64,000 bases of DNA from Felixounavirus AN17P8. The notes beneath the pieces were generated by a model, which saw only the letters and a list, made by a program, of their open reading frames with translations, did not search any database and was not told the DNA's origin. Below are positions 12,946-56,337 of the stretch, in pieces (positions within the stretch are counted from its first letter, which is position 1; every line of letters starts with the position of its first letter). The translations under genes were made by a program, and so were the position numbers. The stretch lies in the sequence record OZ035742.1. The stretch is one strand, 5' to 3'.

Positions 12946-12975
12946 TTGACAATGCACTTGACAAGGTGTTAATCT
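12946..12975 (+). promoter_or_regulatory. sigma70-like promoter in divergent region (tandem TTGACA boxes)
   Basis: gtTGACAatgcacTTGACAaggtg...TAATCT; shares cTTGACAAGGTG with three other promoters. Confidence 0.4.
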
Positions 12976-13142
12976 TTGCGAAGTGGGTTTTTACTTAAAA
13001 GGTTACTTAACAGTTTAGCTATACAGATACTTTAAAACTCTTAAAAGATTATTTAATAGCTTTTAAAAAGCTTTAAAGTATAACGTATAGAATACGTTAA
13101 GATAAAAGATTAAAACTTAATAGTTACTTAAAAGAGGCTTAC

Positions 13143-39400: not shown

Positions 39401-40073
39401 TGTAGTATTGTGCCATGCTTATGACTTACATCCTCATGAGTTAGGTCTTGATTCCTGTGTATGGACTCCAGAACAGTGCAGGGATTTTGAAGACACCGCA
39501 AGAGAAGTTGTATGTTCACTTGAAGAGTTCCACACATCAGAACCAATTGTGAACGTTGTGGACAAAGAGACTGGACAATCCATAGGTGTAAGACGTGATA
39601 GTTTAGTCATAGTTAATAAAGACCTTATAGAAAAAGGGAATCTCATCTTAGCAGATATTGATGGTGTTCTTACAAATTTTAATCACGAAGATTGTTCAAC
39701 GGAATTGACTGATGGTTCATTTTCACAGTACACTAATCTTCTTGATTCTGTAAGAGCAAAACCAACGTATGTTTTCAATATCATTGATGCAATTGCTAAT
39801 CATGCTGCCGTTGGACTCTTGACAGCGAGAGGTGAATCTCAGAGAATACCCACTGAGATGTTTTTAAGGCATAACACGGAGCATGACTACATGCTTTTTA
39901 TGCGTGGTTTTGGGACTAACTCTATAAGTGCAGAAAGTTTGAAAGTGAGGATGATTCAGTCTTGCATTCTGCCTTACTTTAATATAGTATGTTTTATAGA
40001 AGACACAGAGAAGAATGTGCAGAAGGTGAACAGAATCCTTCCACACATCAAAACCATGTTAGTTAAACATTGA
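39378..40073 (+). CDS. HAD-like hydrolase domain protein
   Basis: HAD motif I ILADIDGVLT and motif II GLLTARGE in C-terminal half. Confidence 0.45.
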   Translation: MKKLRKSDVVLCHAYDLHPHELGLDSCVWTPEQCRDFEDTAREVVCSLEEFHTSEPIVNVVDKETGQSIGVRRDSLVIVNKDLIEKGNLILADIDGVLTNFNHEDCSTELTDGSFSQYTNLLDSVRAKPTYVFNIIDAIANHAAVGLLTARGESQRIPTEMFLRHNTEHDYMLFMRGFGTNSISAESLKVRMIQSCILPYFNIVCFIEDTEKNVQKVNRILPHIKTMLVKH

Positions 40074-43650: not shown

Positions 43651-43713
43651 TTGCATCAACGGGGAGGGAATGACCTTCCCCACTAAGTAAAGTCCTAAAC
43701 TGGAGATTCTAAA

Positions 43714-44094
43714 ATGGCATACCGTGCACCTAAATTCATCAATAAAGACAACTTTCGCAACGCACTGGAGAAGTCACTTGATGAGAATTTTAAAGGTAAC
43801 GTTATCGTTGTTCACTCTTTCAATTTCAAGTATGATATCAACGGGAATAAAATCAATCATTACACGGCAACCATGATAGATGGTGCGCTATCAAGTGAAA
43901 AAGCTGTACTAAATGCACTGGCAGGACGTGGAAAGGTTTTAGTAAGATGTGATAAGCGACGTTATCAGGGCGGTGCATATGGTTATGACGATGCTATCTA
44001 TCATCTGGAAAATATGGGCTATCAAGTAGAAAAAGCTGGGGTATCACAAATCATCGGCAGTGATGGCTACGTGACAATCTTCAAAATTAAATAA
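43714..44094 (+). CDS. small protein 1 of promoter-cassette cluster
   Basis: Own promoter TTGACT-N17-TAATAT, 5'UTR hairpin, RBS ggag; 126 aa. Confidence 0.5.
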   Translation: MAYRAPKFINKDNFRNALEKSLDENFKGNVIVVHSFNFKYDINGNKINHYTATMIDGALSSEKAVLNALAGRGKVLVRCDKRRYQGGAYGYDDAIYHLENMGYQVEKAGVSQIIGSDGYVTIFKIK

Positions 44095-45422: not shown

Positions 45423-45448
45423 ACAAACCTGATAAAAGCTTGTAAATT
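45420..45448 (+). promoter_or_regulatory. sigma70-like promoter, cassette gene 5
   Basis: TAGACA-N17-TAAATT followed by leader gtcaatcaacGGGGAGGGaatgaCCTTCCCC. Confidence 0.5.
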
Positions 45449-45512
45449 GTCAATCAACGGGGAGGGAATGACCTTCCCCACTAAATAAAGTCCTTAAACT
45501 AGGAGATTCAAA

Positions 45513-45854
45513 ATGGCTTATGTAACCGTAATTACCGATAAAGCTGACTCATCTTGGTCAACTCAAGTAAGTGACAAGATGTCACCTATGCAGTGCCTAA
45601 AATACTTTGAGCAGTGGAACAAAGGCGAGGATGTAAGCCCCTTTCAGGTAATGCAAATCATCCATGTAGATAATGAAGGCAATAAAACGGTTTTAAATAG
45701 TGAGTACTACGCAAACCGTTTTGAAACTAGAAGTAAAACAATGAAGCTTTTACGTGAATCCGGTTACTCCCATATCGCCGCGCTAATCTGGGATGACCTG
45801 CTAAAAAGTCAGCGTATCAGCTATGTAAAACCTGAAAAAATATTCATCAGTTAA
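45513..45854 (+). CDS. small protein 5 of cassette cluster
   Basis: Own promoter TAGACA-N17-TAAATT, 5'UTR hairpin, RBS ggag. Confidence 0.5.
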   Translation: MAYVTVITDKADSSWSTQVSDKMSPMQCLKYFEQWNKGEDVSPFQVMQIIHVDNEGNKTVLNSEYYANRFETRSKTMKLLRESGYSHIAALIWDDLLKSQRISYVKPEKIFIS

Positions 45855-46073: not shown

Positions 46074-46604
46074 ATGAACAAGTTCAAAGCTATCAACTAT
46101 ATTCGTTCAAATGCTGTAATGTCAAAGCCTGTAAAAGACACATACGAATTTCGTTGCAATGGGGTACACTTTGCAACCATCACTAAGTCAGAAAACGGGG
46201 CTTATTACGTACATCGTCGTAATGTTGCAACCGTTGTAGTCTCTCACTTTATGCAAGCTGTAGCGGAGTTATTACCGTTATTCTTAGAGATTTATCTAGG
46301 TGAGTGTAAAAACGTTCGTAACCACGTTAAAAACCTTTTAAACGGTTATAAAATGGCTTATGAACGTTCTATCAAGTCCTTAAACAAGTTTTATAAAGCT
46401 CCTGTAAACACTGTTTCAATGGCTTACAGTGTAAGCGGTGAGTTGGTTAGTCTCTTCGAAGTGGAAGAAATCGAACTATATAACTCACGTCCTAGCGGTT
46501 ACTCTAAGACACTAGGAGAGGGCTTATCTTTCAATATCAAGAACTTAGAAAAAACTTTAAAAGATATTGAAAAAGATATTGACGAGACAATCAAAAATCT
46601 GTAA
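46074..46604 (+). CDS. protein 6 of cassette cluster
   Basis: Own promoter TTGCAA-N17-TAAATT, covarying 5'UTR hairpin, RBS ggag. Confidence 0.5.
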   Translation: MNKFKAINYIRSNAVMSKPVKDTYEFRCNGVHFATITKSENGAYYVHRRNVATVVVSHFMQAVAELLPLFLEIYLGECKNVRNHVKNLLNGYKMAYERSIKSLNKFYKAPVNTVSMAYSVSGELVSLFEVEEIELYNSRPSGYSKTLGEGLSFNIKNLEKTLKDIEKDIDETIKNL

Positions 46605-46607
46605 ATT
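46579..46607 (+). promoter_or_regulatory. sigma70-like promoter, cassette gene 7
   Basis: TTGACG-N17-TAAATT embedded in 3' end of gene 6; same leader hairpin. Confidence 0.5.
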
Positions 46608-46683
46608 ACTAATCAACGGGGAGGGAATGACCTTCCCCACTAAATAAAACCCTTAATCAACTTCCTAAACTGGAGATTCTAAA

Positions 46684-46932
46684 ATGGCTACTATCCGCGC
46701 TACTGTTAACGAATTTGGTTTTTACTCTCTGGATGTTAAATTTGACCTTGTAGGCACTGATAACGCCTTTGAAATGGTGAAAGGCCTTATCAGCCAGACC
46801 ATCAGCGATTACAATCCTTCTGATGAATTCTGGAAAGAAACAAAAGAGGAAGTTCTCAAAGAGGGTTACACTTATCACTATTGGGGTGAAAAAATTGTAT
46901 CCCTGTACTACGACAAAGAAGGCACTAACTAA
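46684..46932 (+). CDS. small protein 7 of cassette cluster
   Basis: Own promoter TTGACG-N17-TAAATT (inside 3' end of previous gene), 5'UTR hairpin, RBS; terminator follows. Confidence 0.5.
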   Translation: MATIRATVNEFGFYSLDVKFDLVGTDNAFEMVKGLISQTISDYNPSDEFWKETKEEVLKEGYTYHYWGEKIVSLYYDKEGTN

Positions 46933-46942
46933 ACGCCGCAAC

Positions 46943-46993
46943 GGGGCTAAATAGCCCCAGATACCTTTGCAGCCCCTTAAATGGGGCTTTTTT
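46943..46993 (+). terminator. double hairpin terminator ending the small-gene cassette
   Basis: GGGGCTaaatAGCCCC then AGCCCC-ttaaat-GGGGCT-TTTTTT. Confidence 0.6.
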
Positions 46994-46995
46994 AC

Positions 46996-48600
46996 GTCTA
47001 TCGAATCCTTATACAAACCCTTTCCTTCTCCTTTCTAGAATCTTATCAGACCTTAAAAAGCAATAACTCTATAGCCTACTCTATAGCCTTTTATCAAATC
47101 AGTTTAAATATAAGCCCATAACCCGAAAGGGAAGGGCAACCACTATAACGCTCTATAACGCTCTATAACAGCCTTATCAACCTAACTTAAGCAATCATAT
47201 TAACCCACTCTAAAAAGCCCTTTATAGAGCTTCTTAGAGCCTTAAAAGAATCTTATAAGTGTGTAAGCTTTATCATCTCGTTAGTTATCTTGTGAACTAC
47301 TAAAAAGGGCTTGTTATTGTCTTAAAAGTATGTTATAGGGGCTATGAAGTTACTTTGAAGTAGCTTAAAAGTTACGTAAATGCTAGCCCCCTTAACATTT
47401 TCTTAACAATTTCTTAACAAATTCTACATAGTTATGCTTGTTAGAGACTTGTTAGCCTCTTGTTAAATCTCTGTTAAGACCACGTAAAAGCCTTGTAAGA
47501 GTCTTTGGCATAGCCTTCAAAGCTCCTGTAAAGCCCTATAAAGAGCTATCCGTACAGTTGAGGGGTAAATACTAGGGAGAGACTTAAAAGAGCCTATAAA
47601 GAGCTATAGAGAGCTTTTAAAAGGTATGTTTAAAGAATCACTAAGAAAGGAAAGGGAATGATAAGAAAGAAGAGTTGTGTTTGTAAACAACCACTGTGAC
47701 CATGTTAATAGCTTGTTAAAAAGATTAAACACTTGTTAGAAACTTGTTAATTATCTTAACAAAATAACTTTTTAAAATTAACTATATAACTCTTGTTAGT
47801 CATCTGTTAAGCATCTGTAAAGACTATTCAGCACTTGTTAGAAAACTGTTAAGCTCTTGTTAGTTCTGTTAAGAATCTGCTAAGACCTTTGAAGAGTTGT
47901 TAAGAAGATGTGAGAACTGTTAAGAGATTGTTAAGGATATTTTAAAATTCTGCAAAGTACTTGTAAGGGAGCTGTTAAGGGCTACCAAGCAGATATACAT
48001 CTTCTACAGATATTTTTCAGTTCCTTCAAAGACCCTAAAAAATGACTTGATAGTCCTATTTTATAAAAATTTTAAAATTCTGAATAATTACCTATACAGT
48101 CTTTTAAAAATACAGGTAGAAACAGGCTTATAAGATACCTTGTTAGTACCGTGTTAGACCTTGTGAGATAAGGTCTGTAAAGATATTCCTGTTAAGTTTG
48201 TTAAAACAGTCTATATAGAGGCTTAGTAATACCTAGTGAACACCTATAGAGGGTGTCATAGCTGACATAATGGGTTACTGTTAAGTAACACAGATAACCT
48301 AGAGATTAAGAGGTGTATAGGGGCTTCTAAGAGTGTGTAGAGAGATGGTTAAGGTGATTGTATAGGCTGTTAAGAAGGCTTGTTAGAAGAGTGTTTAGAA
48401 GGTTTGTTAGAGGGCTAGTTAGAAGGGTTATACAGAGGGGCTATTAAGACCACTAGATAATTACTAAGATACTATATAGTACTATATAACTATATAGAGA
48501 GTAAGATTAAGAAGGTTGTTAAGAAGGGTAGATATTTTATTCACATATGATGGTGACCCAGAGGTTGGGACAACCGATAAAATTTTATAAAAATTAAAAA
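46996..48600. repeat. non-coding iteron-rich region (YTTGTTAR/CTGTTAAG, ~12-bp phasing)
   Basis: More than 30 copies of TTGTTAG/TTGTTAA/CTGTTAAG, several runs at 11-12 bp periodicity; also CTCTATAACG x3 and TATAAAGAGCT repeats; no ORF over 60 aa. Confidence 0.7.
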
Positions 48601-48630
48601 GCCCCCAATTAAGGAGGCTCTTAAGATATT

Positions 48631-49236
48631 TTAAATCAGTGTTTCCAGAACTGTTTTTAATGATGACTTGGTTGTCTGATAAAAATGAGTGAATCTATTG
48701 TTGTTATCAAATATCTGCATCATAACAGCATCTCCCTTGATTGGGTACACTCGGATATCATAGTGAAACCCATTAAAGACAGCAGAACCGTTACAGAACA
48801 CACTAAAATCATCCACTGAGATATACTCTTCATGCCCTGTGATTTTTATACAGACACCTTTGCTCGGTCTCTTAGGGTTGATATCTTCCATCACAGACAT
48901 ATTCTGTCCACCAAGAGATACCATAGTGACCACTTTACGGTTCTTCTGTTTAAAGTACATCTTAACTTTCTGTAAAGTGTCTTCATAGAACGGATAAGAC
49001 TTCTCTACAAAGATTCCTTCTAATGGCTCTTTACCATTTTCAACTTCTCTGTTATGCCGTACTGCAAAGATAATTTGTTCGAACCAGTCAAGATTTTCTT
49101 CGGAGAGTGCTTCTCGAATATCACTCCAGTCAAGGACTAGGTAGTTACCTTCAACTTCTTTTAAGTTATCTTTTTCCATAGCTATCACACCATTATCGTA
49201 AAACTTGGTAATCTGGTACTGCAAACTTGTTGTCAT
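48631..49236 (-). CDS. hypothetical protein
   Basis: 201 aa; internal ATG at 49179 is an alternative start. Confidence 0.4.
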   Translation of the reverse strand: MTTSLQYQITKFYDNGVIAMEKDNLKEVEGNYLVLDWSDIREALSEENLDWFEQIIFAVRHNREVENGKEPLEGIFVEKSYPFYEDTLQKVKMYFKQKNRKVVTMVSLGGQNMSVMEDINPKRPSKGVCIKITGHEEYISVDDFSVFCNGSAVFNGFHYDIRVYPIKGDAVMMQIFDNNNRFTHFYQTTKSSLKTVLETLI

Positions 49237-56187: not shown

Positions 56188-56216
56188 TTGACAAAGTACT
56201 TGACAAGGTGTAGGCT
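56188..56216 (+). promoter_or_regulatory. sigma70-like promoter in divergent region (tandem TTGACA boxes)
   Basis: gtTGACAaagtacTTGACAaggtgTAGGCT; near-identical to 12946 element. Confidence 0.4.
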
Positions 56217-56337
56217 TATAAATACTTAGAAGATAACTTAAAAGGTTCCTCTAAAAAGGCTATTTAAACAGATATCTTTCTGGATATCTATCTTTTATCT
56301 TAAAAGCCTTTTAAGAGGTCTTATAAGAGGCATACCA

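Follow-up and report, generated by a model that had tools for sequence, protein, structure and literature searches.

The largest gene-free region of a Felix O1-like phage: genome ends mapped in relatives and iterons that resemble ArcA boxes

The window, the 64-kb stretch of DNA analysed here, comes from a Felix O1-like myovirus (Ounavirinae). Its largest gap without genes (1.6 kb, 46996-48600) is a concatemer junction that holds the physical ends of the genome and is not an internal spacer, as is shown by the ends mapped in relatives. The gap contains a direct terminal repeat (DTR) and is filled with short direct repeats, or iterons, most of them on one strand. The reading that we favour, with a probability of roughly 0.5, is that this is a terminal region in which arrays of iterons organize and mark the genome ends, with the host protein ArcA-P as the prime candidate for the protein that binds them. 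Felix O1-like phages are widely used in Salmonella typing, biocontrol and therapy. A DTR that is mapped within the array, with the same outward-pointing iteron at both cuts, provides a map of cis elements for packaging studies and for engineering.

Genome ends in the gene-free region

The gap lies between a plus-strand gene that stops at 46932 and a minus-strand gene at 48631-49236, and two intrinsic terminators point into it. The one on the left is kept in every aligned relative. The edges of the gap and the parts into which the ends divide it are as follows.

46971-46995, plus strand: intrinsic terminator (stem-loop, then a T-run) that ends the rightward gene block; left edge of the gap
48597-48622, minus strand: intrinsic terminator that ends the leftward gene block; right edge of the gap
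46996-47385, no strand: right-end flank, unique DNA inward of the right DTR copy, without YTGTTAR iterons
47386-47986, no strand: DTR of 601 bp, carried by the virion DNA at each end
47987-48600, no strand: left-end flank, unique DNA inward of the left DTR copy
47384-47397, plus strand: left boundary motif TAGCCCCCTTAACA; the mature left end begins at G47386 (GCCCCCTTAACA...)
47972-47986, plus strand: right boundary motif CTGTTAAGGGCTACC; the mature right end stops after it
47392-47420, minus strand: three outward-pointing TGTTAA repeats with 11-bp spacing; bases 7-35 of the mature left end

Several relatives carry the repeat in their database records. In PP892526 and OQ708377, 581 bp and 579 bp, respectively, are duplicated at the record ends with 100% identity (BLAST), and the announcement paper that covers PP892526 states that, according to PhageTerm, the phages it describes have linear genomes with direct terminal repeats. 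Bases 1-580 of PP886229 were matched at two places in that record, and the UAB_69 record has an annotated 'DTR' feature of 618 bp. The DTR boundaries of these four phages map to 47386-47986 of the window, within 2 nt. At least four further records (Ro111lw, NBSal004, NBEco004 and GE_vB_7A) start or end 6 bp or less from window position 47386.

Physical evidence comes from UAB_Phi87, for which a published Bal31/SpeI experiment gave end fragments of 4322 and 2819 bp and a repeat of 608 bp. This genome has only six SpeI fragments, and the one that spans the region measures 6568 bp, compared to a predicted 4322 + 2819 - 608 = 6533 bp, an agreement within 35 bp in total. The Bal31-sensitive end fragments are compatible only with this 6568-bp fragment. 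What counts against an exact match is that the published sizes put the ends 70-110 bp off the boundaries of the other phages. The UAB_Phi87 record starts in a tRNA cluster, and ends at that place were rejected, as the SpeI map places them in the region; the record contains a 542-bp assembly overlap, and 87603 - 542 + 608 gives the published length of 87669 bp. Taken over the relatives, the three properties of a T7-type DTR were all found, namely, the same sequence at both ends, fixed and non-permuted positions, and Bal31 sensitivity. A preliminary description of this DNA, made from the sequence, had likened the region to repeat-rich DNA near the first-injected end of T5-like genomes, and the physical ends indeed lie within it. 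It had overlooked the DTR, however, and had listed too broad a set of functions for testing; the single homogeneous array that it described must be replaced by three parts, the right-end flank, the DTR and the left-end flank.

One motif, TAGCCC(CC)TTAACA, marks both boundaries of the DTR, the second copy being inverted relative to the first, and an outward-pointing TGTTAAG is found 5-7 nt from each boundary, an arrangement expected of recognition elements adjacent to a pac- or cos-type cut. A conserved AAGCAGATATACA adjoins the right boundary in the left-end flank and is retained even in the Erwinia phage phiEa104. In a concatemer, the right-end flank would be followed by a single DTR of about 600 bp and then by the left-end flank, and a packaging nuclease would cut at both DTR boundaries. 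Staggered nicks at the boundaries and subsequent fill-in synthesis would leave the repeat at both ends of every virion genome, a scheme that has reportedly been proposed for T7. Papers on this phage group report only the large terminase subunit. We did not recognize a small subunit, and the 66-amino-acid product encoded upstream of TerL matches only a family of unknown function, so any link between the iterons and terminase is indirect. The region is not discussed in the Felix O1 genome paper, the Danish coliphage paper or the PhageMaP Bas63 preprint, and we found no description in the literature of the iterons or of a link between ArcA and Felix O1 or other lytic phages.

Iterons, their phase and their conservation

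The plus strand of the region contains 16 copies of TTGTTAR, compared to 0.7 ± 0.9 in 500 dinucleotide shuffles, and YTGTTAR occurs 25 times, compared to 1.2 in shuffles, with only 3 copies on the minus strand. This is an enrichment of about 20-fold, nearly all of it on the same strand, and it bears out the dense packing of heptamers that had been noticed before. CTTGTTAG is present in 8 copies in the region and in 1 copy in the remaining 62 kb of the window. TGTTA cores number about 35, of which 29 are forward and 6 reverse; they come in runs of 2-4, and 22 of them lie in the DTR and 13 outside it. The preliminary description had also proposed that the sites are phased on one helical face with a step of about 12 bp. 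The phasing is real, but the step is 11 bp, and a 12-bp period is restricted to the run at 48364-48426. Exactly 11 bp separates same-strand TGTTA cores in 10 of 28 gaps, whereas 0.49 ± 0.68 would be expected under random placement, and the periodicity thus holds against controls. Fourier coherence over the 1.6 kb is weak (AG peak at 11.4 bp, power 1.0, shuffle maximum 0.68). The phase is local and not long-range, and for that reason gap statistics were used in place of Fourier analysis. Besides the triple repeat at the left end, the main groups within the DTR are the following.

47437-47478, plus strand: four forward iterons CTTGTTAG, CTTGTTAG, CTTGTTAA and CTGTTAAG, spaced by exactly 11 bp
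47515-47615, plus strand: CTWWWWAG-type words CTTCAAAG, CTGTAAAG, CTATAAAG (twice), CTTAAAAG and CTATAGAG, mid-DTR, 10-11 bp apart
47702-47986, plus strand: main forward iteron field, 14 TGTTA cores and one inverted copy at 47757

The main field also has several weaker units (TGTAA, TGTGA or TGCTA), and the left-end flank has iteron groups at 48139-48205 and, with the 12-bp period, at 48364-48426.

A wider repeat pattern, CT-N4-AG, was absent from the preliminary description. The region has 61 such words, compared to 11.6 ± 3.0 in shuffles, and the other spacings are depleted (CT-N3-AG, 2; CT-N5-AG, 4). Gaps of 10-12 bp account for 27 of the 60 intervals between these words, compared to 7.9 ± 2.4 expected. 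The DTR holds 27 of the words, including a run of ten at 47792-47894 within the main iteron field, and five more follow each other at 10-11 bp in the right-end flank (47210-47259). The additional repeats that had been named are all present, as CTATAACGCT (2.7 tandem copies, 47143-47169), AAAGAGCTAT (2.8 tandem copies, 47587-47615) and ACTATATAG (three tandem copies in the left-end flank, 48470-48498). The right-end flank further contains two copies of ACTCTATAGCCT at 47066-47089 and a conserved hairpin block with CCCGAAAGGG at about 47110-47141. A scan of IMG/VR with a generic pattern of five CT-N4-AG words returned mostly simple 11-bp tandem repeats, and the few heterogeneous arrays were at loci L023, L027, L012 and L074. 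A second scan, with four TGTTA units, returned mostly AT-rich tandem repeats, and 9 of its 120 loci were relatives of this phage. One unrelated contig (L262) has eight TGTTAAGAARA units and had no match among known phages.

As had been suggested as a check, the region was compared with related phages, and it is present and conserved in them. Identity to Mooglevirus is 0.64-0.86 over the gap, compared to 0.42-0.82 for the flanking genes, and the best-conserved block (47050-47299; 0.84-0.86) lies in the right-end flank. The 8-bp words are conserved at 0.76-0.78, compared to 0.63 for the spacers of 2-4 nt between them. Iteron numbers are stable across Felixounavirus, Suspvirus and Mooglevirus, the left-end triple repeat is kept in Suspvirus and Mooglevirus, and TGTTAAG iterons remain in Kolesnikvirus. 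In phiEa104, inverted TTAACA copies are found at the left of the central block. The TGTTAAG core is unchanged in four genera, even where the remaining region cannot be aligned. A further conserved block, which includes the only DnaA-box-like word of the region, lies at about 48540-48575 in the left-end flank.

We consider it very improbable that the repeats are the result of neutral slippage in a dispensable spacer, or that the region encodes small proteins or a non-coding RNA. Slippage does occur, as indels among relatives come as whole units of 11, 22 and 24 bp, and entire 11-bp units have been gained or lost at 47437-47478. However, neutral repeats would not be conserved above the neighbouring genes, nor their words above the spacers. 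Some GenBank records annotate tiny open reading frames here, but none between 46932 and 48631 exceeds 46 amino acids, the next longest having 42, and both are disrupted in the alignment by indels that are not multiples of three. Mooglevirus sequences have a 22-nt gap over window positions 47005-47026 (approximate), and a 19-nt stretch at about 47677-47695 is missing in every aligned relative. The earlier call of a non-coding region therefore stands for what is also the largest gene-free gap of the window. An Rfam search of the region at permissive E-values gave a best match of E = 0.18, which fell on a terminator, a sigma-70 promoter scan found 11 sites compared to 8.5 ± 3.6 expected, which is no enrichment, and terminators insulate both sides.

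Likeness to ArcA boxes and candidate binding proteins

Because of their 11-bp phase, the roughly 35 TGTTAR iterons would lie on one face of the helix, and they could thus form cooperative arrays. A cooperative protein-binding array had been proposed from the outset, together with a packaging-related region and with sites for a host DNA-binding protein, and all three ideas fit the data. A published host site with such features is the ArcA box, in which a TGTTA core lies in a 10-bp repeat with 11 bp from centre to centre. In ArcA sites, 2-5 such repeats follow each other in steps of 11 or 22 bp, the protein binds them cooperatively, and a repeat that was shifted one bp further apart was not bound (Park et al. 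2013; Park and Kiley 2014). We rebuilt a weight matrix for the 18-bp box from 115 of the 128 published E. coli boxes (Table S3) and took 9 bits or more as the range of real sites. At thresholds of 9, 12 and 15 bits, the region has 21, 11 and 7 matches, compared to 1.93, 0.28 and 0.03 per 1.6 kb in the rest of the window and to 3.0, 0.74 and 0.14 in shuffles of the region. The left-end repeats (47392-47420) form two overlapping matches of 22.7 and 22.5 bits, which is higher than all 115 training sites, the best of which scores 21.5 bits. The iterons at 47437-47478 score 11.6-17.9 bits. When the spacing between the two repeats of the box was varied, 14 matches were obtained at 11 bp and 1-2 at 10, 12 and 13 bp, with 9 at 9 bp. 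Ten relatives from four genera, including Erwinia phages, have 11-15 matches of at least 12 bits each, compared to 0-0.46 per 1.6 kb in their flanks. Among column-permuted matrices, 7 matches of at least 15 bits were reached in 1.3% of trials, and the 22.7-bit maximum was reached in 0.3%.

In core, direct orientation, 11-bp (and in part 22-bp) spacing, runs of 2-4 repeats and scores of 9-22.7 bits, the iterons resemble ArcA boxes, and they are prime candidates for ArcA-P boxes. That a protein binds them, that this protein is ArcA-P and that binding has an effect we infer from the sequence. A protein that recognizes direct repeats would organize and mark the ends when bound to the arrays, and ArcA-P could have an architectural part there, comparable to that of IHF at lambda cos. 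Steps that involve the ends might thereby become sensitive to anaerobiosis. For the other CT-N4-AG words, above all those of the highly conserved right-end flank, a role as recognition elements specific to the phage is more likely. As these phages grow well in aerated laboratory culture, a condition of low ArcA-P, the protein cannot be a strict requirement. It is a more tentative idea, and on balance doubtful, that the Ounavirinae place dozens of high-affinity ArcA-P sites at their chromosome ends so that end-related steps are tuned by oxygen. ArcA-P oligomers might then coat or bridge the terminal repeats, the triple site 6 bp from the left terminus might be a better-than-natural site, and end protection, concatemer formation, cutting or packaging might be adjusted to the oxygen of the gut. 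If binding by ArcA is real, it would tie the end biology of a phage to the oxygen sensing of its host and could bear on differences in the performance of such phages between the anaerobic gut and aerated laboratory cultures. Phage DNA maturation would gain a new class of host factor, and in the more tentative reading a two-component response regulator would for the first time be seen in an architectural role at the termini of a phage genome.

Several findings speak against ArcA. TGTTAG, a form that chromosomal ArcA boxes rarely have, makes up ten of the 29 forward cores, and the spacers contain more G and C than the ArcA consensus; both features are common in the phage. Chromosomal ArcA sites, moreover, have 2-5 repeats and lie at promoters, whereas the phage has dozens at DNA ends, without a promoter. 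ArcA offers no explanation for the extra CT...AG frame, and 11-bp TGTTA-type arrays are also found in unrelated viral contigs whose host is unknown, which indicates that such short iterons can arise for phage-encoded proteins. A serious alternative, to which we give appreciable but minority weight, is that the iterons at the terminus are bound solely by a phage-encoded protein, for instance, a small terminase subunit that has escaped recognition or some other protein that binds the ends. Their resemblance to ArcA boxes would then come from the coincidence of a short T-rich core and one-turn spacing, and about 1% of the column-permuted matrices match equally well. An outward-pointing iteron adjoins each cut site, as a recognition element for terminase would. 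Lambda cosB and P1 pac are likewise built on repeated short elements. No candidate for such a protein was found, however, in the 66-amino-acid gene upstream of TerL, in the ten flanking genes or in a search for OmpR-type domains; a search of the phage for an ArcA- or OmpR-like protein, with an approximate ArcA query of low sensitivity, also returned none. In addition, the TGTTAAG core is constant over four genera in surroundings that cannot be aligned, and a host protein that is itself conserved would explain this more easily than a phage protein that co-evolves.

A further alternative is a role in replication. The preliminary description had listed a replication origin, and part of this finds an echo in the region, which has one DnaA-box-like word (TTWTNCACA at 48537) and a 23-bp run of only A and T from 48057, inside an AT-rich stretch of about 35 bp (48057-48091). 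Iterons beside an AT-rich stretch are the classic layout of an origin, here one at a genome end for a phage or host initiator. The T4 origin oriE has 12-bp iterons, and ArcA-P has been reported to bind oriC. We nevertheless regard an origin as improbable. Some 35-60 sites over 1.6 kb are far above known origins, a single DnaA-box-like word is not accompanied by an IHF consensus anywhere in the region, and no initiator gene was found with Pfam or PHROG among the ten flanking genes. In these ten genes, Pfam gave no significant domain (two sub-threshold matches fell in the gene that is fifth from the region on the left), and their PHROG families are all without assigned function. The GC skew turns at the region, and this is accounted for by the change in transcription direction there. 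The terminal location is in itself sufficient to explain why the region exists.

A different use of ArcA-P sites would be as a sponge, in which replicating phage DNA titrates ArcA-P and lifts the repression of respiratory and tricarboxylic acid cycle genes at low oxygen. Each virion genome would bring about 57 TGTTA cores (22 in each of the two DTR copies and 13 outside), and the density and scores of the sites are above those of natural ArcA targets. The hosts of the subfamily are all facultative anaerobes with ArcA, and the phage has anaerobic ribonucleotide reductase genes, which suggests that growth without oxygen matters to it. A sponge, however, would need neither a location at the ends nor outward-pointing copies at both cut sites, and the benefit of altered host transcription for a fast lytic phage is not evident. 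This makes it an improbable explanation, below even that of an origin.

Parallels in other systems

The closest parallel to a terminal region with iteron arrays is the terminal repeat of T7 with its SRL and SRR elements. In both cases a short, exact and non-permuted DTR is found, and short same-strand repeats at about one helical turn lie within it and in both unique flanks. In T7 (NC_001604), CCTAAAG occurs inside the 160-bp repeat at 17, 41, 60 and 94 and outside it at 175-332, in steps of 13 or 26 bp, and on the right side at 39606-39734. The T7 copies number about 20 and cover about 0.5 kb in steps of 13 bp, whereas the phage studied here has about 35 TGTTA cores (61 CT-N4-AG words) in 1.6 kb, an 11-bp step and a repeat of 600 bp. 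The heptamer of T7 does not look like a known host-factor site, and to our knowledge the function of SRL and SRR is unsettled.

In the R sites of lambda cosB with IHF and in the hexamers of P1 pac, short repeats around a cut are combined with a host architectural protein. Those systems produce cohesive ends or headful cuts at one site, whereas two cut sites 600 bp apart are present here and the repeat between them must be duplicated. Centromeres of the plasmid R1 parC/ParR type and iteron origins also consist of direct repeats of about 11 bp that are bound cooperatively on one helical face. The partition site that had been suggested for the region finds no support. No partition (ParM/ParR or ParA/ParB) or initiator gene was present among the 25 Pfam families listed, out of 63, for 90 open reading frames of the window. 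Compared to parC/ParR, the array described here has far more copies, and its setting is the physical ends of a lytic phage genome.

The genome ends within a gene-free region

A 1.8-kb query around the region at 46996-48600 matched 256 phage records, nearly all of them Felixounavirus, with Felix O1 at 91% (AF320576, 12273-13992), and the phage is therefore a Felix O1-like myovirus (subfamily Ounavirinae). The region sits where two gene blocks converge, with plus-strand genes stopping at 46932 and a minus-strand gene at 48631-49236, and intrinsic terminators at both of its edges point inward. The preliminary description of the region as non-coding holds: no open reading frame exceeds 46 amino acids, an Rfam search of the region gave no match, and promoter-like sites are not more frequent in it than in shuffles. 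Between the genes upstream, a cassette of ~60-75 bp is repeated (43655-43718, 45442-45517, and 46593-46656, secondary BLAST matches), which is probably the "promoter-cassette cluster" of that description. Over the 64-kb window, GATC occurs 0 times on both strands, versus 184 ± 13 expected from dinucleotide shuffles, a complete avoidance of this Dam/MboI-type site.

Several independent lines of evidence place the genome ends in the region (probability of about 0.9). The ends of record PP892526 share an exact 581-bp duplication, and the paper announcing it stated that PhageTerm pointed to linear genomes with direct terminal repeats in the phages it described. OQ708377 has an exact duplication of 579 bp, PP886229 shows a match at bases 1-580 in two places in the record, and UAB_69 carries a 618-bp feature annotated "DTR" (direct terminal repeat); all four repeats map to 47386-47986, within 2 nt. 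The records of Ro111lw, NBSal004, NBEco004, and GE_vB_7A each have a start or an end no more than 6 bp from base 47386. In a published Bal31 experiment with the related phage UAB_Phi87, the SpeI end fragments were 4322 and 2819 bp and the repeat was 608 bp, so that a junction fragment of 6533 bp is predicted; SpeI cuts that genome into just six fragments, of which the one spanning the region is 6568 bp. The region is the concatemer junction and holds the DTR, with YTGTTAR heptamers (iterons) distributed as follows.

Parts of the junction
46996-47385, right-end flank, 0 YTGTTAR
47386-47986, DTR, 17 YTGTTAR
47987-48600, left-end flank, 8 YTGTTAR

The mature left end starts GCCCCCTTAACATTTTCTTAACAA and the right end finishes ...GCTGTTAAGGGCTACC. 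Both boundaries carry TAGCCC(CC)TTAACA, inverted relative to each other, and the DNA starts alike when read inward from either of the physical ends. The two cut sites are thus symmetric, and each adjoins an iteron, an outward-pointing TGTTAAG 5-7 nt away. Because the DTR position is already in public records (one annotates it, several start there, and some mark "repeat_region" features at the region), the terminus identity of the stretch is not new, and no discussion of it was found in the available genome papers. For the iteron anatomy, the symmetric boundaries, and the ArcA-box match, we found no description in the literature.

Three records call for comment. Ends in the tRNA cluster, as taken from the start of the UAB_Phi87 record, were rejected: the two ends of JN225449 overlap exactly over 542 bp inside that cluster, which is an assembly artefact, easily mistaken for real ends, and not the published 608-bp terminal repeat. 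In the window, 26 tRNA genes are clustered at 58373-63585, all on the plus strand. The taxonomy line of PP892526 (vB_EcoM_I14.1) reads Tequintavirus (Demerecviridae), yet its sequence is that of a felixounavirus. GU169904 (Staphylococcus phage SA1, a 147-kb record) holds a gene 91% identical to the 201-amino-acid gene of the Felix O1-like type and is probably chimeric or contaminated.

Phased words and their conservation

The heptamer array reported earlier is borne out, with 25 YTGTTAR on the plus strand (1.2 expected) and 3 on the minus strand; CTTGTTAG alone has 8 copies in the region versus 1 in the remaining 62 kb. The phasing is also real, but the period is 11 bp and not ~12 bp: 10 of 28 same-strand gaps are exactly 11 bp (0.5 expected), and a 12-bp period is confined to the run at 48364-48426. 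Coherence over the whole 1.6 kb is weak, and iteron phase is local. The heptamers are the most frequent members of a broader set of CT-N4-AG words, of which the region has 61 (11.6 ± 3 expected), 27 of the 60 gaps between them being 10-12 bp; CT-N3-AG and CT-N5-AG are depleted.

In the comparison with relatives proposed earlier, a syntenic gap with similar word counts is present in several genera (1.43-1.76 kb, four genera).

Gap, CT-N4-AG words, and forward TGTTA in relatives
Felixounavirus, Suspvirus, Mooglevirus: 1.6-1.76 kb; 54-64; 22-32
Kolesnikvirus (Erwinia phage phiEa104): 1.43 kb; 26; 21, plus 10 reverse

In phiEa104, the TGTTAAG(A) iterons are kept and the CT-N4-AG frame is weaker. 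Identity to Mooglevirus is 0.64-0.86 in the gap versus 0.42-0.82 in the flanking genes, and the adjacent 201-amino-acid protein is ~50% identical to its counterpart. The 8-bp words are conserved at 0.76-0.78, versus 0.63 for their 2-4 nt spacers, and indels between relatives are whole units of 11, 22, or 24 bp. The region is under selection, and an explanation by neutral repeats or hidden genes is very improbable. Two short palindromic insertions at 47675-47697 and 48268-48299 (GTTGTGTTTGTAAACAAC, and GTTACTGTTAAGTAAC within TAATGGGTTACTGTTAAGTAACACAGATAACC) are missing from the Felix O1, Bas63, allfine, and Mooglevirus relatives. The block ATATAAGCCCATAACCCGAAAGGGAAGGGCAA at 47110-47141, which includes a CCC-GAAA-GGG hairpin, is nearly invariant in three genera and falls within the best-conserved section of the right-end flank.

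T7 is the closest structural precedent. In NC_001604 the heptamer CCTAAAG recurs on a single strand, in 13- or 26-bp steps, within the 160-bp terminal repeat and both flanks. The layout is the same, one-strand short repeats inside the terminal repeat and in both flanks, whereas the scale (1.6 kb here), the period (11 bp here), and the word itself differ. The region belongs with terminal-repeat-associated phased repeats; that it is an origin is unlikely. The rival explanations are not all mutually exclusive.

Candidate binders of the iterons

The arrays are likely to be functional protein-binding sites. Direct TGTTA repeats spaced 11 bp apart are characteristic of sites for the response regulator ArcA. 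We rebuilt an 18-bp ArcA box matrix from 115 of 128 ChIP-defined boxes and scanned the window. At thresholds of at least 9, 12, and 15 bits, the region has 21, 11, and 7 matches, versus 1.93, 0.28, and 0.03 per 1.6 kb in the rest of the window and 3.0, 0.74, and 0.14 in region shuffles. At bases 7-35 of the left end, three repeats reach 22.7 and 22.5 bits (best training site, 21.5), and the two-repeat score peaks sharply at 11-bp spacing. The scan also covered 10 relatives from four genera, the Erwinia phage among them, and each has 11-15 matches of at least 12 bits, with 0-0.46 per 1.6 kb in their flanks; column-permuted matrices did equally well in ~0.3-1.3% of trials. ArcA sites carry the TGTTA core in a 10-bp repeat, ATGTTAAAAA, and consist of 2-5 such repeats, 11 or 22 bp apart from centre to centre; binding, which is cooperative, did not extend to a repeat placed one bp further away (Park et al. 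2013; Park and Kiley 2014).

The iterons thus look like sites for phosphorylated ArcA (ArcA-P), and on this sequence resemblance the host protein is the best candidate binder, though still a tentative one. A low-sensitivity search found no phage-encoded ArcA- or OmpR-like protein, and we found no literature linking ArcA to Felix O1-like phages. As the phages grow in aerated culture, ArcA-P cannot be essential. TGTTAG variants and G/C-containing spacers are atypical of ArcA boxes. An array that serves as a sponge for ArcA is improbable.

As the binder, ArcA-P would act as an architectural cofactor. The iteron arrays may assemble into a cooperative nucleoprotein complex by which the ends are marked and organised, and the repeat would be duplicated by opposite-polarity nicking at the two boundaries and subsequent fill-in. 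The highly conserved right-end flank at 47050-47299 could be a phage-specific recognition element. Binding by a phage protein only is a comparably tentative explanation. The CT-N4-AG frame is not accounted for by ArcA and CTTAAAAG-type clusters of it occur downstream of promoters, which together suggest a second binder, probably phage encoded.

These clusters, of the same word family as the terminal region, lie in two divergent control regions (approximately 12950-13135 and 56190-56330), each with tandem TTGACA promoters; they are downstream of the promoters, reach the ribosome-binding site, and could serve a phage regulator as operators. A further caution on the ArcA reading is that arrays of TGTTA at 11 bp also occur in unrelated viral contigs. 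In IMG/VR contigs L023, L027, L012/L112, L074, L262, and L219, gene-free stretches, often near contig ends, hold dense heterogeneous CT-N4-AG words or 11-bp TGTTA(A/C) arrays, and L262 has eight TGTTAAGAARA units.
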